55,091 bases of DNA from an uncultured Bacilli bacterium (GCA_947589435.1 CANQBI010000004.1:1-55091), one strand, 5' to 3'; positions 232-30,200 are shown, counted from the first letter of the stretch. Notes: generated from the sequence alone by a model not told the origin. A program made the numbers and translations.

Positions 232-1057
232 ATGAAGAAAGAGAATAAAAATTTAGTACTATATGTAGGATTAACTATATTAGTAGTTCTAATAAGTAGC
301 ATCGGGGGGGGGTTATTGTAACACCCTAATATCTTTAGTATTCATACCATTTAATAACTTAAAAGATAAACTTTATAATATAAAAGAAAAATATAAAAAT
401 TTAAAATATAAACGAGAAATAACCTATATCATTCTCGGTCTTTTTGTTATGACTTTATTTAGAGTAATAAGTTCTACTCATGCTTACTATAATTATGAAA
501 TGGCTCCAGTCCCTATATTTACATCCAAAGTAGGAAACTTTGCTGGAGAAGGGGAAAGTGTTAAAACAGGACCACTTACTGATAAAAACACAGATATAAA
601 TGTTATATTCTATATGCAACTGCCTGATAATGCTGACAAATATAAGGAAAGTAAATATGTACCAGCAAGTGGATATAAAATAAATGTAGATAAATCTAAT
701 TGTTATCCTGCAGCCGGAGGAGATGCAACTTATAATAACTACACAATCAAAGAAGATGGCACAGTCCATATTGAATATACTGAGACAAAACCAACCCAAG
801 TAACTTGTAGATTATATTATGATAGAGATAAATTATCTGATGTTATTATATATGCCTATATAGAAGATGAAAATGGAGATAGAAAATATAATGACAAAAC
901 TTATAAATTAAACAATTCAGTACCAAGTGGATATAATATGACAGCCCATGAATGTAAAAGTAAAACAGCTGAAACTACATTTACATATGATACCAATGGC
1001 TTTCATATAGATACTGCCGGACCAGATACATGTTATGCATACTTTAGTAAAAGTTAG
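232..1057 (+). CDS. Cassette 1 gene A: secreted/membrane-anchored Cys-containing protein, frameshifted at a G9 tract (phase-variable or pseudogene)
   Basis: ATG 232 after GAGGT gives MKKENKNLVLYVGLTILVVLISSIGGGLL* (stop 319-321). Removing one G from G9 (304-312) reads open into ORF 449-1057. Shares THAYY..PIFT.KVGNF and C-terminal C.AYF with 13506-14207 and 28338-29039. Confidence 0.8.
304..312 (+). repeat. G9 homopolymer, candidate slipped-strand phase-variation tract
   Basis: ATC-GGGGGGGGG-TTATTG inside the 5' coding region in a very AT-rich context. Confidence 0.8.
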
Positions 1058-1068
1058 GAGTGGAAATA

Positions 1069-2238
1069 ATGAAAAAGAAAATAATATTAAAATTAATAGT
1101 GGTATTAGTAACAATAGGAATAATATATGAAGGTTATGGAATGATAAAAGAATTTACTGTATCAAGTAGAAATTTAGAAGAAATAAATACTAAAGACTTA
1201 TCAAGCAATGATAAATCAATAGCTATAGTTTTACAAAATGAAGATGATAGTTGGGAAGAAGCAACTGATAGAAGCAAATGGCCGAGTAAAGAAGATTATG
1301 GCTATATGGGAGCAGAATGTACTGACAGTGATGGAGCAAAGATAGATGTATCCACTATTTTAAAATTTGATTTAATGACCTATCATGCCACAATAGATAC
1401 TAAAAATAGTATTTATTGTACATTATATTTTGCAAAAGGAGAACCAGCGTTACAAAAATTACAAGAAACAGGAGGAGAAGTATTTGCTGGAGGTGGAGAC
1501 CACACAACAGCAGTAGATGGGATGTATAGATATAAAGGGACAACAACAGCCGTAAATAATAATTATATATGCTTTGGAACAAGTAATAAAGATGAATGTC
1601 TTGCAAATCCAGATACCTATATGTTTAGAATAATAGGAATAACAAGTGCAGATGATAATACAGTAGGATTAAAAAAAGGTCAATTAAAGATAATCAAAGC
1701 TACCCCATCAAATACAAGTCAAAAATGGGGAAATAGAGAAGATGATAGTTCACCATGGGACTCATCACAAGCAAAAAACCACGTAACATCATGGTATAAT
1801 ACAAACATCAGTGGCAAACAACCAAACGGAACATATTGGGATAGTATAGTAACAAGTCAAAAATGGTATAATGCAGACCAAACAAGTACACCAGGAACAG
1901 TAGAACCAAAAACAAGTCAAAGTGCAGCAAGTAAAGTTGCTTTAATGTATGGAACAGACTTTACAAATGCTAGTACTGGAACAAGTAGTTGGTTGTTTAT
2001 AAAAAACGGAATGACCGGTAGTCCTAGTTCAAATGAATGGACCATGACTAGGTATGGCCTCAACGACAGACGTTATTGGGCGTGGTATGTGCTTACAGAC
2101 GGCCGCTTGACCTACTGGTATGTGGACGGTACGTATGCGGTTCGCCCAGTCTTGTATCTTCAATCTGCAATAAATTTAACAGGTACAGGAAAATCAGATG
2201 ACCCATTTAGAATAAGAAGTATGAATAATGTCCAATAA
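1069..2238 (+). CDS. Cassette 1 gene B: N-terminally anchored surface protein with C-terminal DGR-target-like (C-type-lectin-like) domain
   Basis: N-terminal Lys-rich plus hydrophobic helix; motifs YRYKG..NNYICFG, FRIIG, EWTMTR..AWYV..G.L..YAVRPVLYL; paralogous to 14218-15468 and 29052-30200. Confidence 0.8.
   Translation: MKKKIILKLIVVLVTIGIIYEGYGMIKEFTVSSRNLEEINTKDLSSNDKSIAIVLQNEDDSWEEATDRSKWPSKEDYGYMGAECTDSDGAKIDVSTILKFDLMTYHATIDTKNSIYCTLYFAKGEPALQKLQETGGEVFAGGGDHTTAVDGMYRYKGTTTAVNNNYICFGTSNKDECLANPDTYMFRIIGITSADDNTVGLKKGQLKIIKATPSNTSQKWGNREDDSSPWDSSQAKNHVTSWYNTNISGKQPNGTYWDSIVTSQKWYNADQTSTPGTVEPKTSQSAASKVALMYGTDFTNASTGTSSWLFIKNGMTGSPSSNEWTMTRYGLNDRRYWAWYVLTDGRLTYWYVDGTYAVRPVLYLQSAINLTGTGKSDDPFRIRSMNNVQ
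2050..2145 (+). repeat. Variable repeat (VR1) matching template-like sequence 53216-53311
   Basis: 69/96 nt identical without gaps by manual alignment; GC-rich with only 2 of 32 third codon positions A, unlike the A-ending codons upstream. Confidence 0.8.
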
Positions 2239-2258
2239 AAAAGACTATTGCTAGTCTT
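2237..2258. terminator. Small hairpin between convergent genes
   Basis: AAAAAGACTA-TTGC-TAGTCTT. Confidence 0.5.
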
Positions 2259-2748
2259 AAGAATTAAATTTAACAGTTATATATTTTTCATCGTTATATA
2301 ACTCTTGAACACTTCTGATAATATCATTAGCTTTCTTATTATCGTGTTCTTTAGAAGATACTACAATACTTATTGAAGTATCTTTTATTTTGACAAAAGA
2401 ATTTAAATTAAATTTCTCTTTGATTAAGTTTTTAATTTTTTCTTCTTCACCTTTAGAATTGTTTAATTTTTGCATATTTTCATAAGCGACATTCTTTTCT
2501 TCAATTGTGGAATCACTATCAAGTAAAATGTCTTGGTATTCTTCCATTAAGGCTTGTTTTTCTTCATCATTTTCGACTTCTAAAGCCACTAAAACATCAG
2601 ATTCCGTTATTTCTAAAGTAGTGTTTTGATTATCATTTTCACTTTTTAAAACACTAGCTACTTCATCATCAATGGAAACATAATAAATACCTAAAATTAA
2701 AATTAAAGAAAATAGGGTAATGAACCATAAATTTTGTTTATTAATCAT
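2257..2748 (-). CDS. spoIIIAH: SpoIIIAH-like family sporulation protein
   Basis: KQNLWFITLFSLILILGIYY N-terminal anchor, acidic coiled region, E..I.NLIK...FV.I C-terminal domain; AGGAGG RBS. Confidence 0.75.
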   Translation of the reverse strand: MINKQNLWFITLFSLILILGIYYVSIDDEVASVLKSENDNQNTTLEITESDVLVALEVENDEEKQALMEEYQDILLDSDSTIEEKNVAYENMQKLNNSKGEEEKIKNLIKEKFNLNSFVKIKDTSISIVVSSKEHDNKKANDIIRSVQELYNDEKYITVKFNS

Positions 2749-2851
2749 ATTGCCTCCTTAAATTTATCACTAAATTTTATGTTGTAGATAAAAATAAATG
2801 ACAAATAATTTAATTTTTTTAAATAAGAATAATTGTTTGAAAAAATGAGAA

Positions 2852-2940
2852 TTTTACAACAAATATGTTCATTTTTTAAAGAAATTTCGCGAAAAAAAAG
2901 GAAATCCGAGATTTTTTTACAATAATATAAGTGAAGGGAG
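2852..2940 (+). promoter_or_regulatory. 89-bp upstream element, copy 1 (copy 2 at 52327-52415)
   Basis: 85/89 identity by manual comparison; ends at the RBS of the ABC transporter. Confidence 0.8.
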
Positions 2941-2947
2941 GAAAAAT

Positions 2948-4987
2948 ATGCAACATTTTAAACCTATATTGCAAAATGATTTTAAGGACTGTGGAATATG
3001 TTGTATGCAGTGGCTTATTATCTATTATGGTGGCTATATTCCTTTAGAAAAATTAAGAGAAGATACTCTTACAGATAGTAAAGGAACAAATGCTTTCCAA
3101 ATTGTAAATACGTTTATTAAATGGGGATTTGATGCCATTGGGGTTTTGGTTTCAAATATAGATGAAGATTTAGTCTTACCTGTAATAGCCCATTTAAAGT
3201 TAGATAATGGTCTTGAGCATTTTGTGGTTATTAAATCTATTATTAACAATAATGTTTATTTAATGGACCCCGGAATGGGTAATCGGAAAATGACGATGGA
3301 TAAGTTTAGAAATGTATTTACGGGACATTTAATAATTGCTAAGCCAAGAGATAGTTTAGTAAAAATGGAAAAAGGTTTAACTATTAAAAAATTATTCTTT
3401 AAAATATTAAAGACCGAAAAGTTTTTAATAGGCAGAATTATTTTAATGAGTTTAATCTTTACCATTCTTACAATATTATTAAGTTTTTATCTCAAAGTCG
3501 GTAGTAGTATAATAACTTATAATAAAAACTATTTAAAAATGGTAATTATTATCTTTGGAATTATGACTTTTTTAAAAGTCTTGTGCCTTTACTTAAAAGA
3601 ATATTACGAAAACCATTTAAGTAATAAGATTGATGTATCCATGTATCCTGCGTTTTTAAAACATTTAATAAGCCTCCCTTTAAAAAATATAAAGAGTAGA
3701 ACAACGGGGGAAATAATATCGAGAATAAATGATTTAGGTAGTTTAAAAAGTTTATTCACAAGTATTTTTATTGATGTATTATTAAATACTCTTTTGATTA
3801 CTTCATCAGTGATTATCTTAATATTTATTAATTATAAATTAACTATTATTTTAGGAATATTAATGTTTATATATCTTATTATAGGTATATTTATCGGGAA
3901 AAGTATTTATCAAAAAGTAATTGAGAATATTGTCTATGGAACCAACTTTAATAGTGAGATAGTGGAAGATATTACAAATTTAGAAAGTATTAAAAATCTA
4001 GATATTAAAAATATTATTTTAACCAAAAATGAAAAAGTCTTAAGTAAGTACTTTTGGAATAGTTATAAATTTAATAATTTTTTAAACATAACAAATTATG
4101 TTAAAGATTTACTTTTAGAGGCATCTTTGTTTGTTATTAATTCTTATGGCTTTTATTTAGTTTTAAATAGTAAGTTTTTAATTATCGATTTATTTACTTA
4201 TAATTTAGTTTTATCTTATGCGACATCTTCCATAAAGGGGATTATCGATAGTATTCCGAGGTATTATTATTTGAAAGCAACATTTAGTAAACTCGAAGAA
4301 TTTATTAATATTGAAGAAGAAAAGGAAGAGAATAATAAACTTATGTTAGAAGGTAATATTACTTTTAACAATGTGAGTTTTTCTTATAATCACTTGGATA
4401 ATATTTTAGATAAAGTGAATTTAAATATTAATAAAGGGTCGCATGTTTTATTAAATGGTGCATCTGGTACCGGAAAAAGTACTATCTGCCATTTAATCTA
4501 TAAAGATATGGAGACAACAAACGGGGAAATATTATTAGATGGGCAAAATATTAAAGATTTAAATATGGAGACAATTCGAAATAATATTTTATATGTTTCA
4601 CAAAATGAAGAATTATTTACAGGAACCATTAAAGAAAATATATTAATAGAAAGGAATGTTGAGGAAAAGTTCTTTTTAGATATCTGTAAAATATGTGAAA
4701 TTGAAAGTATCGTTTCTAAGAAAAGTTTACGTTATAACTCTTTAATTGAGCCTTCATCGAAAAATATTTCCGGTGGGGAAAAACAAAGAATAATTTTAGC
4801 TCGTGGTTTACTAAAACGCGCCAATATTATAATTTTAGATGAAGCTTTAAGCGAAGTAGATAAATACTTAGAAAGTAAAATTATTAGAAATATCTTAAGA
4901 TACTTTAAAGATAAAACAATTATTTATATATCTCATAAAAATCAAGCTAAACTTTTTAAAAATATTATTGAAGTAGGTAATTTATAA
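2948..4987 (+). CDS. Peptidase C39-containing ABC transporter (bacteriocin exporter)
   Basis: Q....DCG and HFVV C39 motifs, TM domain, Walker A GASGTGKS, ISGGEKQR signature, ILDE Walker B. Confidence 0.95.
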   Translation: MQHFKPILQNDFKDCGICCMQWLIIYYGGYIPLEKLREDTLTDSKGTNAFQIVNTFIKWGFDAIGVLVSNIDEDLVLPVIAHLKLDNGLEHFVVIKSIINNNVYLMDPGMGNRKMTMDKFRNVFTGHLIIAKPRDSLVKMEKGLTIKKLFFKILKTEKFLIGRIILMSLIFTILTILLSFYLKVGSSIITYNKNYLKMVIIIFGIMTFLKVLCLYLKEYYENHLSNKIDVSMYPAFLKHLISLPLKNIKSRTTGEIISRINDLGSLKSLFTSIFIDVLLNTLLITSSVIILIFINYKLTIILGILMFIYLIIGIFIGKSIYQKVIENIVYGTNFNSEIVEDITNLESIKNLDIKNIILTKNEKVLSKYFWNSYKFNNFLNITNYVKDLLLEASLFVINSYGFYLVLNSKFLIIDLFTYNLVLSYATSSIKGIIDSIPRYYYLKATFSKLEEFINIEEEKEENNKLMLEGNITFNNVSFSYNHLDNILDKVNLNINKGSHVLLNGASGTGKSTICHLIYKDMETTNGEILLDGQNIKDLNMETIRNNILYVSQNEELFTGTIKENILIERNVEEKFFLDICKICEIESIVSKKSLRYNSLIEPSSKNISGGEKQRIILARGLLKRANIIILDEALSEVDKYLESKIIRNILRYFKDKTIIYISHKNQAKLFKNIIEVGNL

Positions 4988-5400
4988 TGGATTATTTAAA
5001 AGTTAATTATTATAAGTTATTACACTTAAAAGTTAAAAAACATAGTTTATTAATTCTCTTACTCTTAACTATTTTAATCTTTAGTATATGGTATTTAAAT
5101 ACGCATTATATTACGAAGCGAATAGAAAGTTATGGTGTTTATGATGGTTTAGTTTTAAAGTTAGTTGCAGATAAAACGCTCTCTGAGGCAATAACTAAAG
5201 GAAGTAAACTTTCATTTAAAGATAAAGTAGTAAATTATGAAGTAAGCGAATATGGACCTTATGAGATGGTTAATAATACTTTATATCAAGAAATAGATTT
5301 AATTTTAGATGATGATTATGTAGATAATGAAGCGGGTGAAGTAGTTGTCTATTATGGCAAAATTAAAATAATAACTTTTATTTTAGAATTGTTTAAGTAA
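4987..5400 (+). CDS. Membrane-anchored secretion accessory protein (putative)
   Basis: Single TM helix; overlaps transporter stop; lies between transporter and peptide genes. Confidence 0.55.
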   Translation: MDYLKVNYYKLLHLKVKKHSLLILLLLTILIFSIWYLNTHYITKRIESYGVYDGLVLKLVADKTLSEAITKGSKLSFKDKVVNYEVSEYGPYEMVNNTLYQEIDLILDDDYVDNEAGEVVVYYGKIKIITFILELFK

Positions 5401-5413
5401 GGAGGAATTAGTA

Positions 5414-5566
5414 ATGGTTTTAAATAAGGAAGAAATGATGGAAGTAAAAGGAGGGGCCGCCATTAGTACGGCTTTGGTAACGACAATCGCAGCAATAGTC
5501 GGAGGTGTCGTGGTATTCATTAGTGGTATTTTAAATGGAGTGGTAAACTCTAAAGGTTGTAAGTAG
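5414..5566 (+). CDS. Double-glycine-leader bacteriocin-like peptide 1 (50 aa, not in ORF track)
   Basis: AAGGAGG RBS; MVLNKEEMMEVKGG/AAISTALVTTIAAIVGGVVVFISGILNGVVNSKGCK. Confidence 0.9.
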   Translation: MVLNKEEMMEVKGGAAISTALVTTIAAIVGGVVVFISGILNGVVNSKGCK

Positions 5567-5575
5567 GAGGAATTT

Positions 5576-5746
5576 ATGTTAAGTAACGAAGAACTTATGG
5601 AAGTTAAGGGAGGAGCCCTATCCGGAGCGGTCCTTGATAGTATTATCAAAATCATGGATAAAATCTTTGAAATAGGAGCTTCCCTTGGAGATTCTTTAAC
5701 AAGACTTTTTTCGAAAAAAAGTTGTGTGCATGTTACGCGTAGTTAG
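5576..5746 (+). CDS. Double-glycine-leader bacteriocin-like peptide 2 (56 aa, not in ORF track)
   Basis: AGGAGG RBS; MLSNEELMEVKGG/ALSGAVLDSIIKIMDKIFEIGASLGDSLTRLFSKKSCVHVTRS. Confidence 0.9.
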   Translation: MLSNEELMEVKGGALSGAVLDSIIKIMDKIFEIGASLGDSLTRLFSKKSCVHVTRS

Positions 5747-5820
5747 ATATATTTTCTAGTTGTAAAAATTCATCTTAAGTGTTATAATAACTTCAAGTAA
5801 AAAGGAAGGGAGGGCGATTT

Positions 5821-6006
5821 ATGACAAAGGTAGTAGTACAAAATGGTAATATTGACAGTGCTTTAAAGAAATTTAAAGTTAAAGTAGCAAGAAGCGGTGT
5901 CCCTTCAGAACTTAAGAAGAAAAAATTCCATGTTAAACCTGGAGTTGAAAGAAGAATTAAGAAAGAAGAAGGCATTAAAAACTCTCATAAGAGAAATCAT
6001 AATTAA
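5821..6006 (+). CDS. rpsU: 30S ribosomal protein S21
   Basis: IDSALKKFK..V..SG...E.KK..F..KPGV.R pattern; precedes yqeY. Confidence 0.92.
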   Translation: MTKVVVQNGNIDSALKKFKVKVARSGVPSELKKKKFHVKPGVERRIKKEEGIKNSHKRNHN

Positions 6007-6017
6007 GGAGGATATAA

Positions 6018-6452
6018 ATGATTGAACAAATTAATAATGATTTAAAAGATGCTTTAAAAAATGGGGACAAGTTTAGATTATCTGTCTTAAGAATGCTTAA
6101 AAGTGCTTTACAACTTGAAGCTATTAAAGAAAAATCGGAAGCTACTGATGAAATTGTCCTAAATGTTTTAAAAAGACAAGTAAAACAAAGAAACGATTCC
6201 ATTAAAGAATATACTGATTTAGGTAAATTGGAAGTTGCTGAAGATTTACAAAAAGAAATAGACATATTAAAAGAATATCTTCCTGAAGAAGCTAGTGATG
6301 AAGATATTAGAAAAACAGTTGAAGATGCTTTTTCGGAACTTAGTCCTAGTAGTATGAAAGATATGGGAAGAATAATGAAATATGTTTCTGAACACTTAAG
6401 TAATGCGGAAATGTCTAAAGTAAGTGCTTTAGTTAAAGAAAAATTAAATTAG
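6018..6452 (+). CDS. yqeY: GatB/YqeY domain protein
   Basis: DLKDALK.GDK.RLSVLRMLKS, KQR.DSI, YLP, KDMGRIM. Confidence 0.92.
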   Translation: MIEQINNDLKDALKNGDKFRLSVLRMLKSALQLEAIKEKSEATDEIVLNVLKRQVKQRNDSIKEYTDLGKLEVAEDLQKEIDILKEYLPEEASDEDIRKTVEDAFSELSPSSMKDMGRIMKYVSEHLSNAEMSKVSALVKEKLN

Positions 6453-6516
6453 AGGTAAGTATTTAAACTTATCTCTTTTTGTTTATAATAAAAAATATCA
6501 AGAATATAATTAAGTG

Positions 6517-6771
6517 ATGAAAAATTTGCATTTTAAAAGTTATATGGAAAATTTTTTGTATGATTTAAATAACTTCATAACCATTTATGATGATACTTTG
6601 CATGTTTTTAATTTTAATAAATTAAATAAATTAAGTGATACCGAAATTATTTTAAAAATAGGGTTTAAATTAGTTTTAATTGAAGGGGAAAATTTAAGAG
6701 TAAGTAAAATGACCAAACAAGAACTTCTTATTAATGGGGATATTTTTAAAGTGGAGTTTAAAAATGAATAA
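6517..6771 (+). CDS. yqfC: YabP/YqfC family sporulation protein
   Basis: I.GENL.V.......LLI.G.I..VEF motif; position before yqfD. Confidence 0.75.
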   Translation: MKNLHFKSYMENFLYDLNNFITIYDDTLHVFNFNKLNKLSDTEIILKIGFKLVLIEGENLRVSKMTKQELLINGDIFKVEFKNE

Positions 6772-7936
6772 GATAGTTTGGGTTAAAATTAAAAATAAAA
6801 GATATTATAATACTTTAATTAAATTAAATGAAATAGGCACTACTTTATATGAAACTAAAAAAGATAAAGATTATCTTTTAATTAAAACAAGTTTAAAAGA
6901 CTATAAAAGAATCAAAAAATATTTAGTTAGTTATGAAGTAGAGATATATGATGTAAGTGGTTTTTTAAAAGTAAAGGAACTTGCCCAAAAATATCTTGTT
7001 TTTATTTTAAGTAGTATTTTAAGTATTGGTATTTTAATGCTGGCTAATTTAATGGTTTTTAAAATAGATATTAAAAGTAATAAAGAAAGTATTAGAGAAT
7101 TATTAAAAGAAGAACTAAAAAAATATGGTTTAAAAGTGGGAACTTTAAAACATAATCATAAAGATATTGAAGTAATTGTCCAAAATATTTTAGAGGATAA
7201 TAAAGAAACACTTGAATGGTTAGAAATAAAATATGATGGTTTAATTATGGTAGTTAATGTGACTGAAAAAACCATTTTTAATAATGAGGAAGAAAAAGAC
7301 GAATGCGATATTGTAAGTAAAAAAGATGCGAAGATAATCAGTATGAATTTATATCGAGGAGTTGCTTTAAAAGAGGTAAATGATTATGTCTTAAAGGGTG
7401 AAACTTTAATAAGTGGAGCTATCACCCATAATGAAGAAGTTAAAAATACGACTTGTGCGAGTGGAGAGGTTTATGGGGAAGTTTGGTATAAAGCGAAAGT
7501 TGAAGTACCTTTTTTAGAAAATTATATTGAATATACGAATAAAAATAGGTATAATTTAAGTATCAATATAAATGATAAAGAGTATGCGATTTTTAAAAGT
7601 AGATTAGAGCATAAAAAAATTAGCAAAACAGTTTTGTATAAGTTAAATGATTTTCAAATTAATTTTCTTAAAGAAAAAGAATATAAGGAAAGTACCAAAG
7701 TCTTAACCCAAAATGAAGCGATGAATAAAGGAATAAATTTAGCGATTGAGAAAGTTGATTTAAGACTTGGGGAAAATGAAGAGATATTAACTAAAAAGGT
7801 TTTGAAAAAAGAAGTAAATGATAGTACAATATATTTAGAAATATTTATTGTAGCCAAAGAAAATATTGGTGTCGTTAAAGAAGGAATAGGAGGACTAAAT
7901 AATGATGAGATTGCTAGCCGGAAAAATAGTGAATAA
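6764..7936 (+). CDS. yqfD: Sporulation protein YqfD (stage IV)
   Basis: TM helix, LEWLEIK..G, DIVSKKDA.I, V.KGE.LISG, A.GEVYGEVWY. Confidence 0.85.
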   Translation: MNKIVWVKIKNKRYYNTLIKLNEIGTTLYETKKDKDYLLIKTSLKDYKRIKKYLVSYEVEIYDVSGFLKVKELAQKYLVFILSSILSIGILMLANLMVFKIDIKSNKESIRELLKEELKKYGLKVGTLKHNHKDIEVIVQNILEDNKETLEWLEIKYDGLIMVVNVTEKTIFNNEEEKDECDIVSKKDAKIISMNLYRGVALKEVNDYVLKGETLISGAITHNEEVKNTTCASGEVYGEVWYKAKVEVPFLENYIEYTNKNRYNLSININDKEYAIFKSRLEHKKISKTVLYKLNDFQINFLKEKEYKESTKVLTQNEAMNKGINLAIEKVDLRLGENEEILTKKVLKKEVNDSTIYLEIFIVAKENIGVVKEGIGGLNNDEIASRKNSE

Positions 7937-8519
7937 TGTTTGGCCTATGTTAGTAGTCTTTATCGTGGCTATTTCTTTAATTCGTTTTTTCTATTTACGA
8001 AATCATCGAGAGAGATTTTGTTTACATAAAGAATTAAGTTATTTATTTGCCATTATTTATATTTGGCTTTTATTTGAAATCTTAACCATGACGGAACTTA
8101 ATAGTAGTGGAGGCATTAATTTAATTCCTTTTTCGGAAATAATGCGTTATGAATTTGGAACGAAAATGTTTAATTATAGTGTCTTTGGGAATATTTTAAT
8201 TTTTATTCCATTTGGTTTTCTAATTGGCGAATATGTCAATCCCAAAAAAGTGTGGCCCATTTTAATTACCACGCTTCTTACCAGTTTAACAATTGAATTT
8301 GTCCAACTGGAAATAGGCAGAAGTTTTGATATTGATGATGTTTTATTAAATGTGGTGGGAGGTCTTTTAGGATATTTATTATATATAGGATTGTCGGCGA
8401 TTAGTAAGAGATTACCAGACTTTATGCGGAGTGATGCCTTTTATAATATTTTATGGATTGTTGTAATAGTTTTAGCAGGTATATATTTGCTAGGTTATTG
8501 GGGAGTTATATTTAAATGA
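7902..8519 (+). CDS. VanZ family membrane protein
   Basis: NLIPF, GNILIFIPFG, IEFVQ...GRSFDIDDVLLN..GG. Confidence 0.9.
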   Translation: MMRLLAGKIVNNVWPMLVVFIVAISLIRFFYLRNHRERFCLHKELSYLFAIIYIWLLFEILTMTELNSSGGINLIPFSEIMRYEFGTKMFNYSVFGNILIFIPFGFLIGEYVNPKKVWPILITTLLTSLTIEFVQLEIGRSFDIDDVLLNVVGGLLGYLLYIGLSAISKRLPDFMRSDAFYNILWIVVIVLAGIYLLGYWGVIFK

Positions 8520-13141: not shown

Positions 13142-13375
13142 TTATTTGTCTTCGTTGAATAATTCTTTTATATCTATTTCTAAAGCATCAGCAATTCTAG
13201 TTAAAGAAGGAATAGTAAATCCTCTTTGCATTTTTAGACTTTCTATTTTAGATATATAATTCATAGTTAATCCCGCTTTGTCCGCTAACTCTTGTTGAGT
13301 TAGATTTTTTAACTTGCGATATTTTTTAATATTCTTTCTAATAACATCAAAATAATAAGTATCCACATGTTTCAT
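13142..13375 (-). CDS. XRE-family HTH regulator, divergent from cassette 2
   Basis: NIKKYR....LTQQELA..AG....YIS.IE; start chosen from AGGTGG RBS. Confidence 0.9.
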   Translation of the reverse strand: MKHVDTYYFDVIRKNIKKYRKLKNLTQQELADKAGLTMNYISKIESLKMQRGFTIPSLTRIADALEIDIKELFNEDK

Positions 13376-13387
13376 AATGCACCACCT

Positions 13388-13450
13388 GTCCATATTATTA
13401 CAAAAAAATTTATTTTTACATATGGACACATTGTCCATAAAATGGTATAA
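13388..13450. promoter_or_regulatory. Candidate XRE operator and cassette 2 promoter
   Basis: Palindrome TATGGACA-CAT-TGTCCATA (~13421-13439), extra half-site TGTCCATA at 13388, then TGGTATAAT. Confidence 0.6.
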
Positions 13451-13505: not shown

Positions 13506-14207
13506 ATGATAAAAGAAAGAATAAAAAAATTATTAGATATAAGAATAATATATATAGTTATAGGCTTTTTTGTTATTGTTTTATTTATATGTTTAAAAGG
13601 AACTCACGCTTATTATAATTATTCAACGGGACCAGTTCCAATATTTACTGGTAAAGTAGGAAATTTTGCTGGTAAAGGAGATACCAGCACTTTAGATACA
13701 AATACCGATGTTAACTTACTTTTTTATGTTCAAGATATCACTAATCCTAAAAATTATACTATTATGGAAGGTACACCGGTTTTAGTATCAGGTTATGTAT
13801 TAAGTGAAAAGAAAAGTAATTGTATTCCAATTGATGCCACATATGAAAAATATTCTGATAAAGATTATTCAATAAGTGATGATGGAACAGTAACAGTAAA
13901 AGTAAGTCAAAGTAAACCTAATCAAGTAGTATGTCGAATATATTATGATTATGGTAAAGACTTAACTAAAGATGATGTTATAGTGTTTGCGTTAATTGAA
14001 GATCCATTAGGTATGGTTGTTTATAATAAAAATAGCAAACATTATACAATGACAGAAACAATACCAACAAGTGGATATACTTATGATAGTTCAAACTGTA
14101 ATGATATAAATAATATAAAAACAGAAATAAATTATGATACAACAAAAGGCATTACATTTAAAACGGATGGTCCAAATATATGTTATGCATATTTTAATAA
14201 AAATTAG
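13506..14207 (+). CDS. Cassette 2 gene A, secreted/membrane-anchored Cys-containing protein
   Basis: TM then GTHAYY..PIFTGKVGNFAG; SNC, VCRIYY, CYAYF shared with paralogs. Confidence 0.85.
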   Translation: MIKERIKKLLDIRIIYIVIGFFVIVLFICLKGTHAYYNYSTGPVPIFTGKVGNFAGKGDTSTLDTNTDVNLLFYVQDITNPKNYTIMEGTPVLVSGYVLSEKKSNCIPIDATYEKYSDKDYSISDDGTVTVKVSQSKPNQVVCRIYYDYGKDLTKDDVIVFALIEDPLGMVVYNKNSKHYTMTETIPTSGYTYDSSNCNDINNIKTEINYDTTKGITFKTDGPNICYAYFNKN

Positions 14208-14217: not shown

Positions 14218-15468
14218 ATGAAAAAGAGAGTATTAAATATAATAGTGGTTATAATAACAATTGGAATAATATATGAAGCATACAGCTATTTTAATATGAA
14301 ACCAAATAATAAAGTTTTAGAGAATATTAAGATAGTAGATAAATTTGATAAAAACGATAAATCACTATCTATAATGATTCAAAATGATGGAATATCAGAT
14401 GGCGAAACGGAATATGGCTGGCATGAAGCAGAAGATAAAAGTAAATGGCCAGATTTAACAAAATACAGTTATGCAGGGACAGAATGTACAGATGCTAGTG
14501 GAGCAAAGGTTGATAATCCAAGACAATATTTACAATTTGATGAAGTAAACAAAGAAGCTACAATTACAACAAAGAAAACCATATATTGTACATTATACTT
14601 TGGAAAAGGAAGACCAGCATTAGAAACATTAGATGCTCAAGGAGGAGCATATTATGCTGGAGGTCAAACAGGAGATTCAAAAGTAGCAGTAGAAGGATTA
14701 TATAGATTTAAAGGAACATATGAAGAAGTAACAAACAACTTTATATGTATAGGAGGCCCAAAAAATCCTGAAACTTGTGGAAGTGCCGAAAACAATAAAT
14801 ACTTGTATCGCATAATAGGAGTAACAGATGGAACAGAATCAGATGAAAGTAATTCCTTAGGATTAGATAAAGGAATGCTAAAAGTAATCAAAGTAATACC
14901 ATCAAGCACAAGCCAAGCATGGGCGAGTTATGACATTATTAGTTACTTTACATGGGATTATAAGGATAGTACAGAAAGTTTAGGAGCAGTAGCGAGATGG
15001 ACATTGAATAACACATTCTATAATGGATTAGGAGGAGTAAAAGGCTTAATAAAAGATGTATATTGGTGGAAAGGTGATAATACCAGTGAAACTTATGCAT
15101 CTGAATCAAAAACAAGAACAAGCGAAAAATACCCAGTAGGTTTAATGTACAAAAGTGATTATTATAATTCATGGACATATAAAGGTTATCCTAGTTATAC
15201 AAATAGTTGGTTACATATAATTTACACAATGAGCGGAAAAACAGGAACATATGGAAGTACATATGAATGGACCATGACTAGGGGTTCTGCCAACAACACT
15301 GGCGCTTACGAGGCGTGGTATTTGGATTACCGTGGAGATTTGGCCCGTCGTAGTGTAGAGATGAAATATGCAATCCGGCCGGTTTTCTATCTAAAACCCG
15401 ATGTAAGTATAATAGGGACAGGAACTGAATCGAGTCCATATATAATAACGACATTAACTGATAATTAA
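14218..15468 (+). CDS. Cassette 2 gene B, surface protein with DGR-target-like C-terminus
   Basis: EWTMTR..AWY....G.L....V...YAIRPVFYL; segment 15280-15390 is GC-rich. Confidence 0.85.
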   Translation: MKKRVLNIIVVIITIGIIYEAYSYFNMKPNNKVLENIKIVDKFDKNDKSLSIMIQNDGISDGETEYGWHEAEDKSKWPDLTKYSYAGTECTDASGAKVDNPRQYLQFDEVNKEATITTKKTIYCTLYFGKGRPALETLDAQGGAYYAGGQTGDSKVAVEGLYRFKGTYEEVTNNFICIGGPKNPETCGSAENNKYLYRIIGVTDGTESDESNSLGLDKGMLKVIKVIPSSTSQAWASYDIISYFTWDYKDSTESLGAVARWTLNNTFYNGLGGVKGLIKDVYWWKGDNTSETYASESKTRTSEKYPVGLMYKSDYYNSWTYKGYPSYTNSWLHIIYTMSGKTGTYGSTYEWTMTRGSANNTGAYEAWYLDYRGDLARRSVEMKYAIRPVFYLKPDVSIIGTGTESSPYIITTLTDN

Positions 15469-15480
15469 AATTAATATAAT

Positions 15481-15588
15481 TACTTGACAAAGTTCGACAG
15501 ATTCGTCGAATTTTGTCATAATATTAGAAGTTTTGACAACATTTGTCGAACGACTTGACTTAGTAAAAAATATCTATAAAATATAGTC
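15481..15588 (+). repeat. 108-bp palindrome plus promoter element, copy 1 (copy 2 at 30213-30320)
   Basis: About 101/108 identical; TGACAAAGTTCGAC..GTCGAATTTTGTCA inverted repeat; TTGACT-N16-TAAAAT. Confidence 0.9.
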
Positions 15589-15592
15589 CTCG

Positions 15593-15627
15593 AAACGAGA
15601 AGTATTAGAAAATATTTCTCGTTTTTT
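15593..15627 (+). terminator. Terminator-like attenuator in the leader of the PemK-like gene
   Basis: AAACGAGAAGTATT-AGAA-AATATTTCTCGTTT followed by further T. Confidence 0.7.
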
Positions 15628-15644: not shown

Positions 15645-16160
15645 ATGAAAACAAAAATTGAAAAAGAAAATCAAATTCAAAAAATTGAAAAAAGTACGGA
15701 AAATTACAAAAAAGCTTATAAATCAAAAAATCCTAAATTCTTTAAATTAGGTAGTTGGTTAAAAAAAGAGTCAACAGTTTTTAAAAACGAAAAATATTTT
15801 AATGATGAATTAAAGCCGAGTTTTGAAAGAGGAGAAATAATTAAAGTTGATTTTGGAGTTAATATGGGATCAGAATTATCTAATGTTCATTTTGCTATTG
15901 TTTTAAATAGTGATGATAACGAAGTTGTCGATAATATAACTGTTTTGCCTTTATCTTCTAAAGAAGGATATAAAAGATTATGTTTAGGAAAATTAAAAGT
16001 ATCTAATTATCCAAGATATGATAAAACTTCTTATGCATTAATTACTCAAATAACTACAATAAGTAAAAGTAAAATTATATTAGAAAAAAATAAATATTAT
16101 TGTAGTGCAGAAATAATGGACTTAATAGATTTAGAAATTATTGATTATTTAACAAAATAA
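15645..16160 (+). CDS. PemK/MazF-family endoribonuclease-like protein with N-terminal extension; no adjacent antitoxin ORF
   Basis: RGEII.VDFG.N.GSE....HFAIVL..D......ITV.PLSSK and A.I.QITTISK.KI. Confidence 0.85.
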   Translation: MKTKIEKENQIQKIEKSTENYKKAYKSKNPKFFKLGSWLKKESTVFKNEKYFNDELKPSFERGEIIKVDFGVNMGSELSNVHFAIVLNSDDNEVVDNITVLPLSSKEGYKRLCLGKLKVSNYPRYDKTSYALITQITTISKSKIILEKNKYYCSAEIMDLIDLEIIDYLTK

Positions 16161-21194: not shown

Positions 21195-21228
21195 GTAAGC
21201 ATTTGCTTACTTTTTATGTAGGTTGGTT

Positions 21229-21750: not shown

Positions 21751-21798
21751 ATTACAAATATAATAGTCTAATTTAAAAAATAATGTTATAATAAGGTT

Positions 21799-21875: not shown

Positions 21876-21893
21876 TTTTTGTGAGGTGAAAGA

Positions 21894-22778
21894 ATGAAAA
21901 TTTTAAAAAACATAGCCTTAGTAATTTTAGTCATTGTTTTATTTTTAGGAAGTTTTAGTTTAATAACTTTATTTACGGTTAAACATACAGTTTCTAAAGA
22001 TAGTATTAAAGATATGATTGTAAGCACGGATGTGGAAAAGATAATCAAAGAAAATCCAGAACTAGAAAGTTCCCTAAAGGATTCTTTAAAAGAAGTATAT
22101 GATACTTTAGAAGAACTTAATATTAATGAAGACATTGTATTAAAAGTTTTAAATTCTTCCGAAGTAAAAGGTTTAGTAGGAGATGTTACAGGTAAAGTAG
22201 CCGAATATTTCTTAGAAGGTAAAAATCAAAAGTTAATTGATGCGGACAATATAACTTCTATTATTGGGGGAGTAATGGATGATATCAATGAAACTAAATT
22301 ATATAATTTTACCGAAAAAGAAAAGAATGATATTTTAGATAGTATTAAAAAAGGTATTGAAGATAATGAAGAATTATTACCAGATACTAGTATTTTAGAA
22401 GATACTTTAACGGAAGAAGAACAACAAGACTTAGAAGTAGTAAGATTTATCTTTAGTGGAGAATTATTTACTTATATTTTAATTGGTAGTTTAATTGCCT
22501 TTGGTTTAATTGTTGTCTTATCATTAAAGAAAGCGAAATGGATAAAGATAACTTCATCTACTATTTTAGCTTCAGGTACTCTTATGGCAATTTTGATGCT
22601 TGTCTTACTTGTAGGTACCAAACTATTAGGAACTGAATATAGTTATGTTGTTGATATTATTAAAATGATGCCAATATTTGGTTTAAAAGTAGCCGTTGTA
22701 ATCATCATTTTAATGATTGCTATCCTTATTGCTTATCATTTAATTAATAAACATAAAAATATTCCTAATAATAATTAA
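21894..22778 (+). CDS. Hypothetical membrane protein
   Basis: N-terminal TM, acidic domain, three C-terminal TM helices; GAGGTG RBS. Confidence 0.75.
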   Translation: MKILKNIALVILVIVLFLGSFSLITLFTVKHTVSKDSIKDMIVSTDVEKIIKENPELESSLKDSLKEVYDTLEELNINEDIVLKVLNSSEVKGLVGDVTGKVAEYFLEGKNQKLIDADNITSIIGGVMDDINETKLYNFTEKEKNDILDSIKKGIEDNEELLPDTSILEDTLTEEEQQDLEVVRFIFSGELFTYILIGSLIAFGLIVVLSLKKAKWIKITSSTILASGTLMAILMLVLLVGTKLLGTEYSYVVDIIKMMPIFGLKVAVVIIILMIAILIAYHLINKHKNIPNNN

Positions 22779-22829
22779 AATAACTTCAATAGTTATTTTT
22801 TTTTTGGTATAATTATTATGAGGTTAGAT

Positions 22830-24908
22830 ATGGAATATTTAGACAGTTTAAATAAAGAACAAAAAGAAGCAGTTATGCATATTGATGGCCCATGTCTAGT
22901 AGTAGCGGGGGCTGGTTCAGGTAAGACTAAAGTTCTTACAACTAGAATTGCTTATCTTATTGATAAAGGTATTTATAGTAGTCATATTTTAGCGATTACT
23001 TTTACAAATAAAGCTGCGAAGGAAATGAAAGAAAGAGTTGGAAGGCTTACTTCAAATAGTTATGCTTTTGTAGGAACCTTCCATTCTTTTGGGTTAAGAA
23101 TAATTAAAGAAAATTATGAAGTAATGGGCTTAAAGAAAAATTTTACTATCATCGATTCGGATGATGTTTTAACCATTATTAAAAAAGTTATGAAAGAAAA
23201 AGGGATGGATGTAAGGGAAATATCGCCATCTTATGTAAGAAATAGAATTAGCTTTATTAAAAATGAAATGTTAAGTGTAAGTGATATTGCTAAATATTTT
23301 TTAAGTGATATTGAAAAGAAGGCTGCCGAAGTTTATTTTGAATATGAAAAAACTTTAAGAAAAAATAATGTTATTGATTTTGATGATTTATTAAAATTAC
23401 CGGTAGAATTATTTGAAAGTCACGAAGATATTTTAGATTTATATCAAGAAAAATATCAATATATTTTGGTAGATGAATATCAAGATACCAATGAAGTGCA
23501 ATATAAAATGATTAAACTTTTAGCCAGTAAATATCGGAATATCTTTGTTGTTGGAGATCAAAATCAAGCTATTTATGGTTTTAGACAAGCGAATTATAAA
23601 AATATTTTAAATTTTGAAAAAGATTATCCGGATGCGGAAGTTTATGTTTTAAATCAAAATTATCGGAGTACAACCACCATTTTAAATGCGGCCAATTCGG
23701 TTATTAAAAATAATGTGGAAAGAAAAGAAGTTAATTTATTTAGTGAACTAGGGGAAGGTGTCAAGGTTAAATATTTAAAATGCAAAACAGGTTTAGATGA
23801 AGCAAATTTAATTATTAAAGAAATTGAAAATTTACTTTCTATAGGTTATCAAAAGAAAGATATTGCGATTTTTTATAGAACTAATGCCCAATCCCGGATT
23901 TATGAAGAAGCCTTAATTAAGAATGGTTTACCTTATAAAGTAGTAGGTAGTTTTTACTTCTATAAAAGAAAAGAAATTAAAGATTTAATATGTTATTTAA
24001 AATTAATTGCGAATACCGATGACGATGTTTCTCTTTTAAGAGTTATTAATGAACCAAAAAGAGGCATTGGGGCTAAATCAATTGAAGGTTTAACAGGAAA
24101 AGCGAGAAGAGAAGGCACTTCTATTTTTGAGACCATTGATGGTGGTAAAGAACAAGATTTTAAAAATATGATTTTAGATATCCAAAAGGAAAGTGAGAAT
24201 TTATCTTTAACGGAATTAATTGATTTAGTGTTAGAAAAAAGTAAAATGAAAGAAGAGTTAGAGAAAGTTCATACTTTAGAAGCTGACATTAGACTGGAAA
24301 ACTTAATGGAATTTAGAAGTATAACGGAAAATTATCAAAATGTTACTGGTAGTGTTAATTTACAAGACTTTTTAGAGGAAGTAAGTTTAATTGCGGACAT
24401 TACCGAACATAAAGAAGAAAATGATGAAATAACTTTAATGACTTTTCATTCCGCTAAAGGGTTAGAGTTTAAAGTGGTCTTTATGGTAGGCATGGAAGAT
24501 GGTCTTATGCCTCATATGAATGCTTTTGATGAAAAAAATGGCATTGAAGAAGAAAGAAGACTTTGCTATGTGGGGATAACGAGAGCCAAAGAAAGATTAT
24601 ATTTAACTAATGCGAAGATGAGAATGCTTTATGGTAAAGAAATGTTTAATGTTCCATCACGCTTTATTGCGGAAATTGATCCTAAATATTTAGAAGTAAG
24701 TGGTGAAGAAGAAAAAATAAATAAAGAAAGTTATTATACCGAAAATAGTGAAGAATGTGATTATAAAAGTGGAGATGTTGTTACGCATTTAACCTATGGC
24801 AGAGGGGTTGTTATATCCGTTGATGACCGGTTTGTCAGTGTGGCCTTTAGTAAACAATACGGTATTAGAAAATTCTTAAAAAACTATAAAGGACTAAAGA
24901 AAGGATAA
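22830..24908 (+). CDS. pcrA: ATP-dependent DNA helicase PcrA/UvrD
   Basis: AGAGSGKT, TFTNKAA, VDEYQDTN, NYRST, EEERRL.YVGITRA; near ligA. Confidence 0.96.
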   Translation: MEYLDSLNKEQKEAVMHIDGPCLVVAGAGSGKTKVLTTRIAYLIDKGIYSSHILAITFTNKAAKEMKERVGRLTSNSYAFVGTFHSFGLRIIKENYEVMGLKKNFTIIDSDDVLTIIKKVMKEKGMDVREISPSYVRNRISFIKNEMLSVSDIAKYFLSDIEKKAAEVYFEYEKTLRKNNVIDFDDLLKLPVELFESHEDILDLYQEKYQYILVDEYQDTNEVQYKMIKLLASKYRNIFVVGDQNQAIYGFRQANYKNILNFEKDYPDAEVYVLNQNYRSTTTILNAANSVIKNNVERKEVNLFSELGEGVKVKYLKCKTGLDEANLIIKEIENLLSIGYQKKDIAIFYRTNAQSRIYEEALIKNGLPYKVVGSFYFYKRKEIKDLICYLKLIANTDDDVSLLRVINEPKRGIGAKSIEGLTGKARREGTSIFETIDGGKEQDFKNMILDIQKESENLSLTELIDLVLEKSKMKEELEKVHTLEADIRLENLMEFRSITENYQNVTGSVNLQDFLEEVSLIADITEHKEENDEITLMTFHSAKGLEFKVVFMVGMEDGLMPHMNAFDEKNGIEEERRLCYVGITRAKERLYLTNAKMRMLYGKEMFNVPSRFIAEIDPKYLEVSGEEEKINKESYYTENSEECDYKSGDVVTHLTYGRGVVISVDDRFVSVAFSKQYGIRKFLKNYKGLKKG

Positions 24909-24912
24909 AAAG

Positions 24913-27812
<2,900 letters not shown>

Positions 27813-27947
27813 CCTTCTTTTGTCATTTTAAAAGGTTAGAGTAAGTTCTCTAACCATCTTTTTTAGTTGCCATATGTAGGGCTGGCTTCACCCACTTTTT
27901 TTAACAATTTAATAATATCACATTTTTTCCAAAAAGTATAACAATTT

Positions 27948-28145
27948 TTAATAAATTTCTTTTATATATTTAACAATATCTTCATCACTTATGTTAAGAA
28001 TTAATATAAGTTTTCTTAATGTTTCAAATGAAGGCCTACTTTTTTCTTTTTCAATTCTTTGCATTTGCCTCCAAGTAATGTCAAGTTTTTCCGCCAGTTG
28101 TTCTTGGGTTAATCCAGCCTTTAACCTATATTCTTTAAATAACAA
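27948..28145 (-). CDS. XRE-family HTH regulator, divergent from cassette 3
   Basis: YR...GLTQEQLAE.L.......IE....RPS; GAGGTG RBS, TTG start. Confidence 0.9.
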   Translation of the reverse strand: MLFKEYRLKAGLTQEQLAEKLDITWRQMQRIEKEKSRPSFETLRKLILILNISDEDIVKYIKEIY

Positions 28146-28337
28146 TATATCACCTCGTATTTATTATGTCATTTTGTGTCTTGCTTTGTTATGGTATTTA
28201 ATATCATATTTTGCCTTGCTTTTTATTTAAATATAATTTATAATAAATATGACATATAATATCATAAAAGAATAACAAAATGTTATTTTTATATGTATAC
28301 AATAATCGGTATTAGCAACACACAAAAAGGAGGTAAA

Positions 28338-29039
28338 ATGTTAATAAATTTAGAAAATAAAAAAATATATATTGTGATAATAATTCTTTCTATTGTTGTA
28401 TTTGTAACTTTATTTAAATTAGTATTGAAAGATACTCATGCTTATTATAGTTATGACAGTGGTTGGACTCCAATATTTACCGGTAAGGTTGGAAACTTTG
28501 TTGGAGGGGGAGAAAGTGTTAAACAAGGTCCAGTAGATGTAGAAAGTGATGTAAATGTTATATTTTATACTCAAGTATCAAGTGATACTAAAAAATATAA
28601 AGAAAGAAAATTTATGCCAATCGGAGATTATGTTTTAAATAGTGAGGCATCTAATTGCTATCCAGCAAAGGGTAATGAAGTAACTTATGATGGTAATAAT
28701 TATTATAAAGTAAATGAAGATGGAAGTATAAGTATAAAATACACTGAAGCCAAACCAACTCAAGTAACTTGTCGATTATATTATGATATAGATACTTCAA
28801 ATAACAATAATATAGAAGGAGACATATCGGTATACGCTTTTATTAAAGATACTAACGGAAACAAAGAATATAATGGAGATAAATATAAATTTACAAGTAT
28901 TGTAGATAAAACATGGAATTTAGATGGACACGAATGTGATTTTGAAAATAACATAACTAGGTTTGATTATACAAGTGAAACAGGGTTTAGTATTTCATCA
29001 GTTGGATCAAATGTCTGCTTTGCGTATTTTAGTAAATAG
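28338..29039 (+). CDS. Cassette 3 gene A, secreted/membrane-anchored Cys-containing protein
   Basis: DTHAYY..PIFTGKVGNF, SNCYPA, KPTQVTCRLYYD, CFAYFSK; ATG after AGGAGG. Confidence 0.85.
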   Translation: MLINLENKKIYIVIIILSIVVFVTLFKLVLKDTHAYYSYDSGWTPIFTGKVGNFVGGGESVKQGPVDVESDVNVIFYTQVSSDTKKYKERKFMPIGDYVLNSEASNCYPAKGNEVTYDGNNYYKVNEDGSISIKYTEAKPTQVTCRLYYDIDTSNNNNIEGDISVYAFIKDTNGNKEYNGDKYKFTSIVDKTWNLDGHECDFENNITRFDYTSETGFSISSVGSNVCFAYFSK

Positions 29040-29051
29040 AAGGGAATAGAA

Positions 29052-30200
29052 ATGAAAAAGAAAATAATGTTAAAAGGTATTGTTATAATATTAATAGTGG
29101 TAGAAGTTATATCATTATACTTATTGTATAACACAGGCAATAAAAATGTATTAGATGAGGTGGTAGCAACATCATTAAAAAATAAGAAACAATCCATAGC
29201 GATAATGGTCCAACAGGATGATAACACATGGAGGGCTGCTGAAAATAGAAATGCTTGGCCAAGTTCGGCAACTCATGGTTTTGTTGGTTCTAAATGTTAT
29301 GATGGAAATGGAGCATTAGTAGAAAGTTTGGATGTACTTAAATTTGATTTAAATACATATACAGCCATAATAAACACAACAAACAGTGTTTATTGTACAT
29401 TATACTTCGCTAAAGGAAAAAATGCTTTAGAACTATTGCAAGAAAAAGGTAAAACAACTTTTGCTAGTGGAAACTTAATCGCAGTAGATGGACTATACCG
29501 TTTTAAAGGAACATATAGTCAAGTATTAAATAATTACATATGTTTTGGAACAACAGTAGAAAGTACATGTACAGGTACTCCAGCAACATATATGTATAGA
29601 ATAATAGGAATATCAAGTGAAGCAGATAATACAATAGGATTATATTCAAGTCAATTAAAAATAATAAAAGCGGTACCATCACTAACAAACCAAGAGTGGG
29701 GTGGCTTCATGTATAACTATCCTGTATGGGAAGAATCGAAATTAAAAGAATATTTAAACACAACATTTCTAAATACGATAAAAAATGGAACTGATGGAAC
29801 ATACTGGAATGGCATAATAAGTCAACATGGATGGTATGTAACAGTTCAAGAAAGTCTGCCAGGAACAGTAGAACCAAAAGATACAACACTTGCAGGAGAC
29901 TCAAATAATATAATAGGGTTAATGTATGCAACAGATTTTAATAATGCTGGAAATTGGTTATTATTAAGTAATGGTTGGACAAATAATTCTCCAGATGGAG
30001 AGTGGACCATGAGTAAATTCGATGATGATGTGGGTTCTGGTGCTTGGTACATTGATCAAAGTGGTTATGTGACGAACGCATATATTGAACGTGAATTATC
30101 AGTTCGGCCTGTCTTCTATCTTAATACAGGAACTAATTTAACAGGAGAAGGAACCAAAGACCATCCATTTATAATATCAGGGGTAATGCCTCAAGATTAA
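29052..30200 (+). CDS. Cassette 3 gene B, surface protein with DGR-target-like C-terminus
   Basis: EWTMSK..AWYI...G.V.....LSVRPVFYL; paralog of the other two B genes. Confidence 0.85.
   Translation: MKKKIMLKGIVIILIVVEVISLYLLYNTGNKNVLDEVVATSLKNKKQSIAIMVQQDDNTWRAAENRNAWPSSATHGFVGSKCYDGNGALVESLDVLKFDLNTYTAIINTTNSVYCTLYFAKGKNALELLQEKGKTTFASGNLIAVDGLYRFKGTYSQVLNNYICFGTTVESTCTGTPATYMYRIIGISSEADNTIGLYSSQLKIIKAVPSLTNQEWGGFMYNYPVWEESKLKEYLNTTFLNTIKNGTDGTYWNGIISQHGWYVTVQESLPGTVEPKDTTLAGDSNNIIGLMYATDFNNAGNWLLLSNGWTNNSPDGEWTMSKFDDDVGSGAWYIDQSGYVTNAYIERELSVRPVFYLNTGTNLTGEGTKDHPFIISGVMPQD

Follow-up and report, generated by a model that had tools for sequence, protein, structure and literature searches.

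Diversity-generating retroelements (DGRs), in which a reverse transcriptase (RT) rewrites a variable region (VR) of a target gene from a template repeat (TR), are the closest described relatives of the system analyzed here. This system was recognized from three two-gene surface-protein cassettes (A+B) in a contig of 55,091 nucleotides from an uncultured Bacilli bacterium (GCA_947589435.1, CANQBI010000004.1:1-55091), which is called the window as a whole. The DGR of Bordetella phage BPP-1 (Mtd, bRT, Avd) is a phage cassette with one TR beside the RT and one target, whose VR is located at the C-terminus of a C-type lectin (CLec) fold. A DGR template requires RNA segments both upstream and downstream for cDNA synthesis by RT-Avd, as described for BPP-1 (10.1101/2023.10.23.563531). 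In Treponema denticola, one RT encoded on the chromosome serves several dispersed surface proteins with the CLec fold, and the remote targets were screened against the DGR's own TR (PMC5758913). In the passages of the survey by Wu et al. on the arrangement of DGRs, TRs adjoin the RT, no DGR is named with more than eight targets (the number in Stenotrophomonas), and remote targets occur within a single lineage (PMC5758913). According to the passages of Yan et al. on multiple VRs, a single TR is usual among multi-VR DGRs and a minority have more, such as Stenotrophomonas with two (PMC6642488), and Roux et al. describe their own method as blind to remote targets (PMC8144416). The domain DUF6273 is C-lectin-like and is a known DGR target in gut phages, in proteins called tentaclins (PMC10743442).

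The present system shares a putative Avd, an RT, and a VR at the C-terminus of a predicted CLec-like fold with BPP-1, and the leader and 3' part of its TR units are comparable to the flanking RNA of the BPP-1 template. It is cellular and would act in trans, with many templates and many targets. The DGR of Stenotrophomonas sp. SKA14 has its parts in one locus, whereas stand-alone units with a TATAAT box, a hairpin, and a T-run are scattered over the genome here. In comparison with Treponema, the present genome has 13 TR units spread over 9 contigs, 26 of 49 B-like open reading frames (ORFs) show the 3' anchor with at most one mismatch, and a partner protein A is present. Unlike the tentaclins and the immunoglobulin A (IgA) peptidase of Thomasclavelia ramosa, protein B is cellular and predicted to be membrane-anchored, and the Pfam DUF6273 model stays below its cut-off on B1, B2, and B3. 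The Vlp-type phase-variable surface-protein families of Mycoplasma are similar in combining a small genome, a large surface-gene family, and homopolymer-run switches; two-gene lectin cassettes and putative retroelement hypermutation distinguish the present case. In the literature searched, no single-RT system that uses a dozen stand-alone templates was found described; multi-TR DGRs may be among the entries of the supplementary tables of PMC5758913 and PMC6642488.

It is proposed here, with a probability of roughly 0.68, that the three A+B pairs are members of a two-gene surface-protein family of about 45 cassettes, and that only the first pair still looks like a live DGR target.

Cassettes in the window and in the genome

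The window is the whole contig C4 of a metagenome-assembled genome (MAG) of 1.44 Mb in 62 contigs, estimated to be 93% complete. Its G+C content is about 27%. An earlier note, made from the sequence of the window, had described three A+B pairs, and all three were found on the plus strand. The interval 232-1057, at the start of the first pair as given there (232-2238), is not a single ORF. The ORF list and sequence reading revealed a leader ORF of 29 codons (232-321), whose stop codon comes right after a run of nine G residues (G9; 304-312), and then the A1 body (449-1057), the frame of which is open from 302 with the first ATG/GTG/TTG at 449. A1 includes the motif THAYYNYE..PVPIFT. Loss of one G would fuse the leader and A1 frames, and thus the G9 run is a candidate slipped-strand switch; there are four overlapping matches to G8 in the window against 0.21 expected.

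B1 (1060-2238) follows A1, and it shows an N-terminal transmembrane (TM) helix, an immunoglobulin (Ig)-like domain, and a DUF6273/CLec-like head in an AlphaFold2 (AF2) model and structure matches. The VR1 of 97 nt is located at 2050-2146. In the second cassette, A2 (13506-14207), with a TM helix, the THAYYNY motif, and two small beta domains, is followed by the B1 paralogue B2 (14218-15468; ORF list and phmmer), which includes the VR2-like segment at 15280-15379. In the third cassette, the ORF of A3 (28338-29039) opens at 28293, with a AAAGGAGG-like stretch before 28338 as read from the translation, and B3 (29052-30200), another B paralogue with a sub-threshold DUF6273 match, includes the VR3-like segment at 30015-30108. 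All of these are encoded on the plus strand.

The C-terminal motif EWTM..AWY..G..(V/I)RPV.YL reported in the earlier note is present in B1, B2, and B3. The identity of the 20-mer ATGAATGGACCATGACTAGG at 2033 and 15263 is exact as well, and none of 100 shuffles contained two matches. In the genome, this 20-mer is found exactly at those two places only and at 25 places with two mismatches or fewer; it corresponds to the conserved border on the 5' side of the variable region. A G+C-richer C-terminal segment of about 100 bp, which had been claimed for all three B genes, was observed in B1, where the 60-nt bin that spans the VR reaches 0.57, and in B2 (0.53). It is not clear in B3, whose bins over the VR show 0.38-0.40 while an earlier bin reaches 0.45.

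The homology search with phmmer against 2866 ORFs of at least 50 aa, called by ourselves from the entire genome, detected 37 A-like and 49 B-like ORFs. Three of them match both queries and are A-B fusions. For all 34 A-only ORFs, a B gene is located directly downstream on the same strand, and a separate sequence search of the genome yielded 46 B matches. The cassette family (83 ORFs) spans 81,065 of 1,440,375 bases, or 5.63%. A chromosome-wide repertoire, suspected from the window, is consequently a matter of about 45 A+B cassettes, three of which are the window pairs. Homologues of B were found from all 24 other species of the genus searched, with 1 to 74 matches each, and from none of 16 genomes of other families.

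The downstream flank of B1 (2238-2400) is 99% identical to a segment of a sister genome (G051:C34:11323-11486), while the adjoining B gene is only ~71% identical. This difference indicates the probable replacement of a cassette at a conserved locus. One database protein, P0004, is 99% identical to B1 but spans residues 4-253 only, so that the VR lies outside.

Adenine bias and anchors of the variable regions

For the comparison, 43 VRs were aligned with 13 TRs. Six of the 49 B-like ORFs, which are fragments, fusions, or have divergent ends, were left out for lacking the EWTM...RPVFYL motif pair. The closest TR of VR1 is not the one in the window at 53216 but C6:31039 on another contig. Against this TR, VR1 is changed at 16 of 31 adenine sites and at 6 of 66 other sites (Fisher p 8.6e-6); against the window TR the changes are 14 of 27 and 13 of 70, respectively (p 0.0016). 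VR2 against TR C13:40270 shows 16 of 31 adenine sites and 26 of 66 other sites changed, and VR3 against TR C45:9220 shows 18 of 28 and 33 of 64 (p 0.18 for both). Adenine enrichment with p<1e-3 was seen in 22 of the 43 VRs, and the identical test on C, G, or T gave 0 of 43 each. When the TR was picked by total differences instead, 21 of the 43 VRs remained enriched.

Both anchors are exact in VR1, AGGTATGGC on the 5' side and GCGGTTCGCC(C) on the 3' side, and these two ends are common to all 13 TRs. Neither anchor is present in B2 or B3. Among the 49 B-like ORFs, the 5' anchor is exact in 17, while the 3' anchor GCGGTTCGCCC is exact in 12 and has one mismatch in 14 more. In a DGR, the IMH at the 3' end of the VR differs from the IMH* of the TR. 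Here the 3' borders differ between the two kinds of repeat: the VR reads GCGGTTCGCCCAGTCTTCTAT, and GCGGTTCGCC in TRs is followed by 0-3 extra bases and AGCCTTCTAT (AGACTTCTAT in the window TR). This difference may direct homing.

The earlier note had VR2 and VR3 matching the template at 53216 far worse than VR1, and this was borne out: VR1 is 72% identical to it over 109 nt, and VR2 and VR3 give no match. Neither has a non-coding look-alike in the whole assembly. In VR2 the 5' two thirds are G+C-rich and NNY-rich, and the 3' end is GCAATCCGGCC; VR3 shows no rise in G+C. The proposal of multi-template DGR targeting for all three pairs is therefore retained for VR1, on account of its anchors and adenine bias, and not for VR2 and VR3, which have no anchors, no template found in this assembly, and no significant bias. 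With exact anchors and adenine bias, VR1 is read as an addressable and likely live DGR variable region. The absence of the three features from VR2 and VR3 means that two of the three window cassettes are probably not addressable any more. VR2 looks like a decayed VR whose 5' two thirds are still TR-like and whose 3' end has drifted, and VR3 looks like an older relic or a segment that was never targeted.

Only one close orthologue pair was found, between the B gene at C44:7859-9034 of this genome (G000) and one on contig C68 of the sister genome G054. They are 90.5% identical, and 38 of their 112 differences fall within 120 columns over the VR, including length changes of 9 nt and 3 nt. Such VR-concentrated length changes are what is expected of replacement by templates of differing length. 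A mosaic model that admits several TRs per VR (dynamic programming, switch cost 2) lowered the cost for B1 from 6 to 5, a figure without a null model.

Template-repeat units

The genome includes exactly 13 TR units, on 9 contigs. Each is composed of a conserved TATAAT box, a leader beginning with TAGGTAATCTTGA.., a TR core of 85-109 nt, and a 3' part of ~150 nt with a hairpin and a T-run. The window unit (53182-53453, plus strand) is a stand-alone one with the TR core at 53216-53312 and the structured 3' RNA at 53303-53453. The non-coding, AAY-rich segment at 53216 has the ends AGGTATGGC and GCGGTTCGCC in common with VR1 and is, judged by its sequence, a true template repeat. The 3' parts of the 13 units have a mean identity of 91% and a common predicted fold of 40 pairs, of which 9 are kept through two-sided changes. 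The search of Rfam with 52900-53650 revealed no family at E<=1. The conserved leader and 3' part fit the need of a DGR template for flanking RNA (10.1101/2023.10.23.563531). Service by several templates, as supposed in the earlier note, agrees with 13 TR units for one Avd+RT locus.

The TRs themselves vary at 31 of 36 consensus-adenine columns and at 19 of 61 other columns. This may reflect adenine mutagenesis of the templates themselves, or a freedom to drift that is limited to those codons. Within the genus, the TR 3' element was detected in 18 of 42 genomes, with 12, 12, 7, 6, 6, 4, 4, and 4 copies in the richest, and in two species four TR units stand in tandem beside the RT. Six of the 13 TR units (on C6, C7, C13, and C18) are followed by a further conserved stretch, CTTTTTTTAAA..GAAGGGAG.., resembling a promoter and the beginning of a gene that these units have in common.

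Reverse transcriptase and candidate Avd

Two RTs are encoded in the genome, on contigs C13 and C17. The C13 RT is 374 aa long with an intact frame, and it contains an RVT_1 domain (E 3.6e-18). Its start is overlapped by an intact 128-aa ORF similar to bAvd, and a TR unit is located about 1 kb upstream of the RT. The closest relative with a solved structure is 8ub7_A (E 3.6e-22), which we take to be the Bordetella bRT; the next is a group II intron maturase (E 3.3e-9), and 8ub7_A is well ahead of both group II intron and retron RTs. The motif IGNMTSQ is presumably a hallmark of DGR RTs. The C13 protein is thus classified, from these similarities, as a DGR-type RT. Of 42 genomes of the genus, 22 gave a match to the RT, some with internal stops, and the RT is present in 16 of the 17 other genomes that carry the TR element.

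The C17 RT (G000:C17:110-3685) is 323 aa long and unrelated to the DGR. It looks retron-like.

Predicted structures of proteins A and B

The AF2 model of B1, with a predicted local distance difference test (pLDDT) score of 86.6, begins with a helix at the N-terminus, which is followed by a disordered linker, a beta domain (residues 54-125), and a large head (residues 128-392). The head is most similar to 9qa6_A (Z 15.7, root mean square deviation 3.2, 202 residues aligned), which is the N-terminal DUF6273 domain of the IgA peptidase from Thomasclavelia ramosa (PMC12402451). Many C-type lectin domains come next with Z 5.5-7.5, including Legionella Lcl at 7.4, and the DGR target TvpA (2y3c) is matched with Z 5.7. 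The Foldseek search of the PDB with B1 gave 9qa6 as the sole match (E 1.1e-3). It is these matches of the B1 head that uphold the C-type-lectin-like nature of the B C-terminus suggested in the earlier note. No model of Pfam or NCBIfam scored above the cut-off on the A and B proteins; B3 reaches 20 bits against a cut-off of 23.5 with DUF6273 (PF19789), over residues 221-244, and PF19789 is annotated on 22 of the 120 homologues listed. According to the model, B is anchored in the membrane and bears a DUF6273/C-type-lectin-like head.

The AF2 model of A2 (pLDDT 75.7) shows a helix, a low-confidence segment with the motif THAYYNY..PVPIFT.KVGNF, and two small beta domains. When it was compared with known folds for likeness to TasA, as in TasA/camelysin fibre subunits, its matches did not exceed Z 3.8, the top ones being SraP and MucBP-like adhesin modules; Foldseek returned nothing from the PDB below E 0.016, and the top score in the ESM Atlas, 0.84, is below lead level.

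The complex of B2 residues 40-416 with A2 residues 33-233 was modelled. Binding is predicted with scores of 0.78, 0.80, and 0.76, and the best control scored 0.00. The mark for these scores is reached by 58 of 80 solved complexes and by 2 of 110 mismatched pairs. The contacts agree by at least 77% among the runs, with a partner pLDDT of at least 72. The modelled interface is formed by B2 residues 48-126 and A2 residues 62-73, 86-90, and 126-143, and the B strand 113-118 pairs with the A strand 128-134. The model places A at the membrane-proximal stalk of B, far from the variable tip.

The earlier note compared the THAYY motif with SipW-type signal peptides and suggested that A and B may form a fibre with a variable tip. 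The THAYY motif presumably resembles the motif GT(F/W)A(Y/A)F, and the SipW-dependent signal model of NCBIfam (TIGR04088) gave no match at E<=1 on A1, A2, or A3. A SipW-type peptidase (TIGR02228) is matched twice in the genome, once at 1 kb from another cassette. One locus (G000:C3:26742-30092) encodes a membrane protein of 352 aa whose C-terminal part is a SipW-type signal-peptidase domain. A secreted protein of 163 aa is encoded on one side of it and a protein of 287 aa on the other, and it is convergent with another A+B cassette.

Proposed mechanism and alternative explanations

In the proposed mechanism, B would be anchored by its N-terminal helix and would carry the Ig-like stalk domain and the DUF6273/C-type-lectin-like head, the last ~97 nt of which serve as the DGR variable region. 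Protein A may bind the stalk domain by edge-strand pairing, as in the structural model. The single Avd+RT locus, on another contig, would act in trans on 13 separately transcribed TR RNAs, each with leader, TR, and structured 3' part. As in known DGRs, mutagenized cDNA would then replace the VR of any B gene that keeps the anchors. B1 keeps them and bears what appears to be an adenine-specific scar, while B2 and B3 have lost them and would be frozen relics. The XRE-type regulators and the G9 frameshift switch of cassette 1 may add variation at the level of expression.

Several observations weigh against this proposal. No VR/TR pair differs at adenines only: the minimum of non-adenine mismatches is 3 in this genome and 2 (with 15 adenine changes) in the sister genomes G054 and G051, from which 29 VR candidates and 15 TR cores were compared. 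Recent activity is unsupported because every pair has such mismatches. They might come from TRs absent from the assembly, from more than one TR per VR, from mutation between rare homings, or from a laxer adenine specificity of the RT. The p-values, including 8.6e-6 for VR1, are rough because the TR was picked post hoc as the best of 13 and the sites are non-independent. In an assembly of 62 contigs and 93% completeness, TRs may be missing, and the parts are not placed relative to each other. Orthologues of B1, B2, and B3 above about 75% identity were not found in the two closest genomes. The bAvd model PF22296 matches the 128-aa ORF with E 2.3e-6 and 28.5 bits against a cut-off of 40, and the sequence search of the PDB with this ORF gave no relative. 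Pfam DUF6273 has no match on B1 or B2. A simple scan of the window TR unit for sigma-70 promoters and terminators found nothing at the TATAAT box or at the terminal hairpin; the hairpin has a long inner stem, which is outside what the scan admits.

It is unlikely that the DGR is a fossil, with RT, TRs, and VRs as leftovers and the present variation due to divergence of paralogues, cassette swapping, and recombination alone. The three or more non-adenine mismatches to the best TR in every VR would be expected of such remains, and in several species of the genus the RT contains internal stops. Whole B genes, and not VRs alone, diverge strongly between genomes whose RTs are 97-100% identical. Nevertheless, the RT and Avd frames are intact in this genome, the 13 TR 3' parts retain 91% identity with compensatory pair changes, close orthologues differ to a large part in the VR, length changes included, and RT and TR elements occur together in 16 of 17 genomes. 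Quite improbable is the opposite possibility that all three VRs are live targets, VR2 and VR3 being served by templates other than 53216. Thirteen different TRs exist and more may be unassembled, and the 5' part of VR2 is still G+C-rich and NNY-rich. However, both anchors common to all 13 TRs are absent from VR2 and VR3, and these segments have neither an adenine bias against any TR nor a non-coding look-alike in the assembly.

The TR-like units also resemble the silent donors of gene conversion of the RecA type, known from pilS-type antigenic variation: they are numerous and dispersed, do not code for protein, have common ends, and copy in part the 3' end of an expressed family. Donors of this kind instead of RT templates are very improbable here, because the units are AAY-rich and the VR differences are adenine-specific, with 0 of 43 in the test of C, G, and T. 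In addition, a structured RNA that ends in a hairpin and a U-run is conserved in every unit, and a DGR-type RT and a putative Avd are present and co-occur with the units across the genus. The reading with only the first pair as a live-looking DGR target is preferred over these alternatives.

As an extension of this reading, a combinatorial and self-renewing DGR is conceivable, although it is proposed only tentatively and is rather doubtful. At least 13 stand-alone template RNAs would be used by one RT-Avd, any template would rewrite any anchored tip, including tip length, and the templates would be diversified by occasional homing into template loci. Since the template ends are identical, any template could rewrite any anchored lectin tip in dozens of cassettes, and with adenine diversification of the templates, the template library would evolve together with its targets. 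If this is true, the combinatorial DGR, poly-G switches, and local repressors would constitute three stacked layers of surface variation in a gut bacterium with a reduced genome.

If the preferred reading is true, one RT with a dozen independently transcribed templates and dozens of lectin-tipped targets extends the range of known DGRs, and template RNAs can be modular trans-acting genes. The 13 templates, the anchored and decayed VRs, and the species with and without RT would offer a natural test of homing features. It would also explain why bacteria of 0.9-1.5 Mb spend about 6% of the genome on surface variation, and it would provide a natural multi-template design for the engineering of DGR-based mutagenesis.

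Neighbouring genes and other elements

Cassettes 2 and 3 are each preceded by a divergent XRE-type helix-turn-helix (HTH) gene on the minus strand, at 13142-13438 (Pfam HTH_3, E 5.6e-13) and 27948-28145 (E 4.8e-13), respectively. A conserved element of 133-220 bp is located directly downstream of B2 (15469-15601) and B3 (30201-30333), and it is also found 3' of B genes at no fewer than 10 other places in the genome. This element, a possible operator of the following gene, contains TTGACA/TATAAT boxes that resemble a promoter as well as several copies of the half-sites TGTCGAA/TTCGACA.

Another G9 run (53580-53588, within 53565-53595) lies between a TTGACA and a TATAAT box, just upstream of a gene starting at 53623, the product of which has at least 489 aa, a signal-peptide-like start, and no Pfam match. 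This run looks like a phase switch in the promoter spacer.

A SpoIIIAH-like protein is encoded at 2257-2748 on the minus strand (Pfam E 5.3e-11), in a genome of only 1.44 Mb. Two ORFs similar to PemK/MazF toxins were recognized with Pfam, one after cassette 2 (15645-16160, E 5e-11) and one before the TR unit (52472-52888, E 4.8e-4). The latter is flanked by two small paralogous ORFs, at 52103-52285 and 52913-53128.

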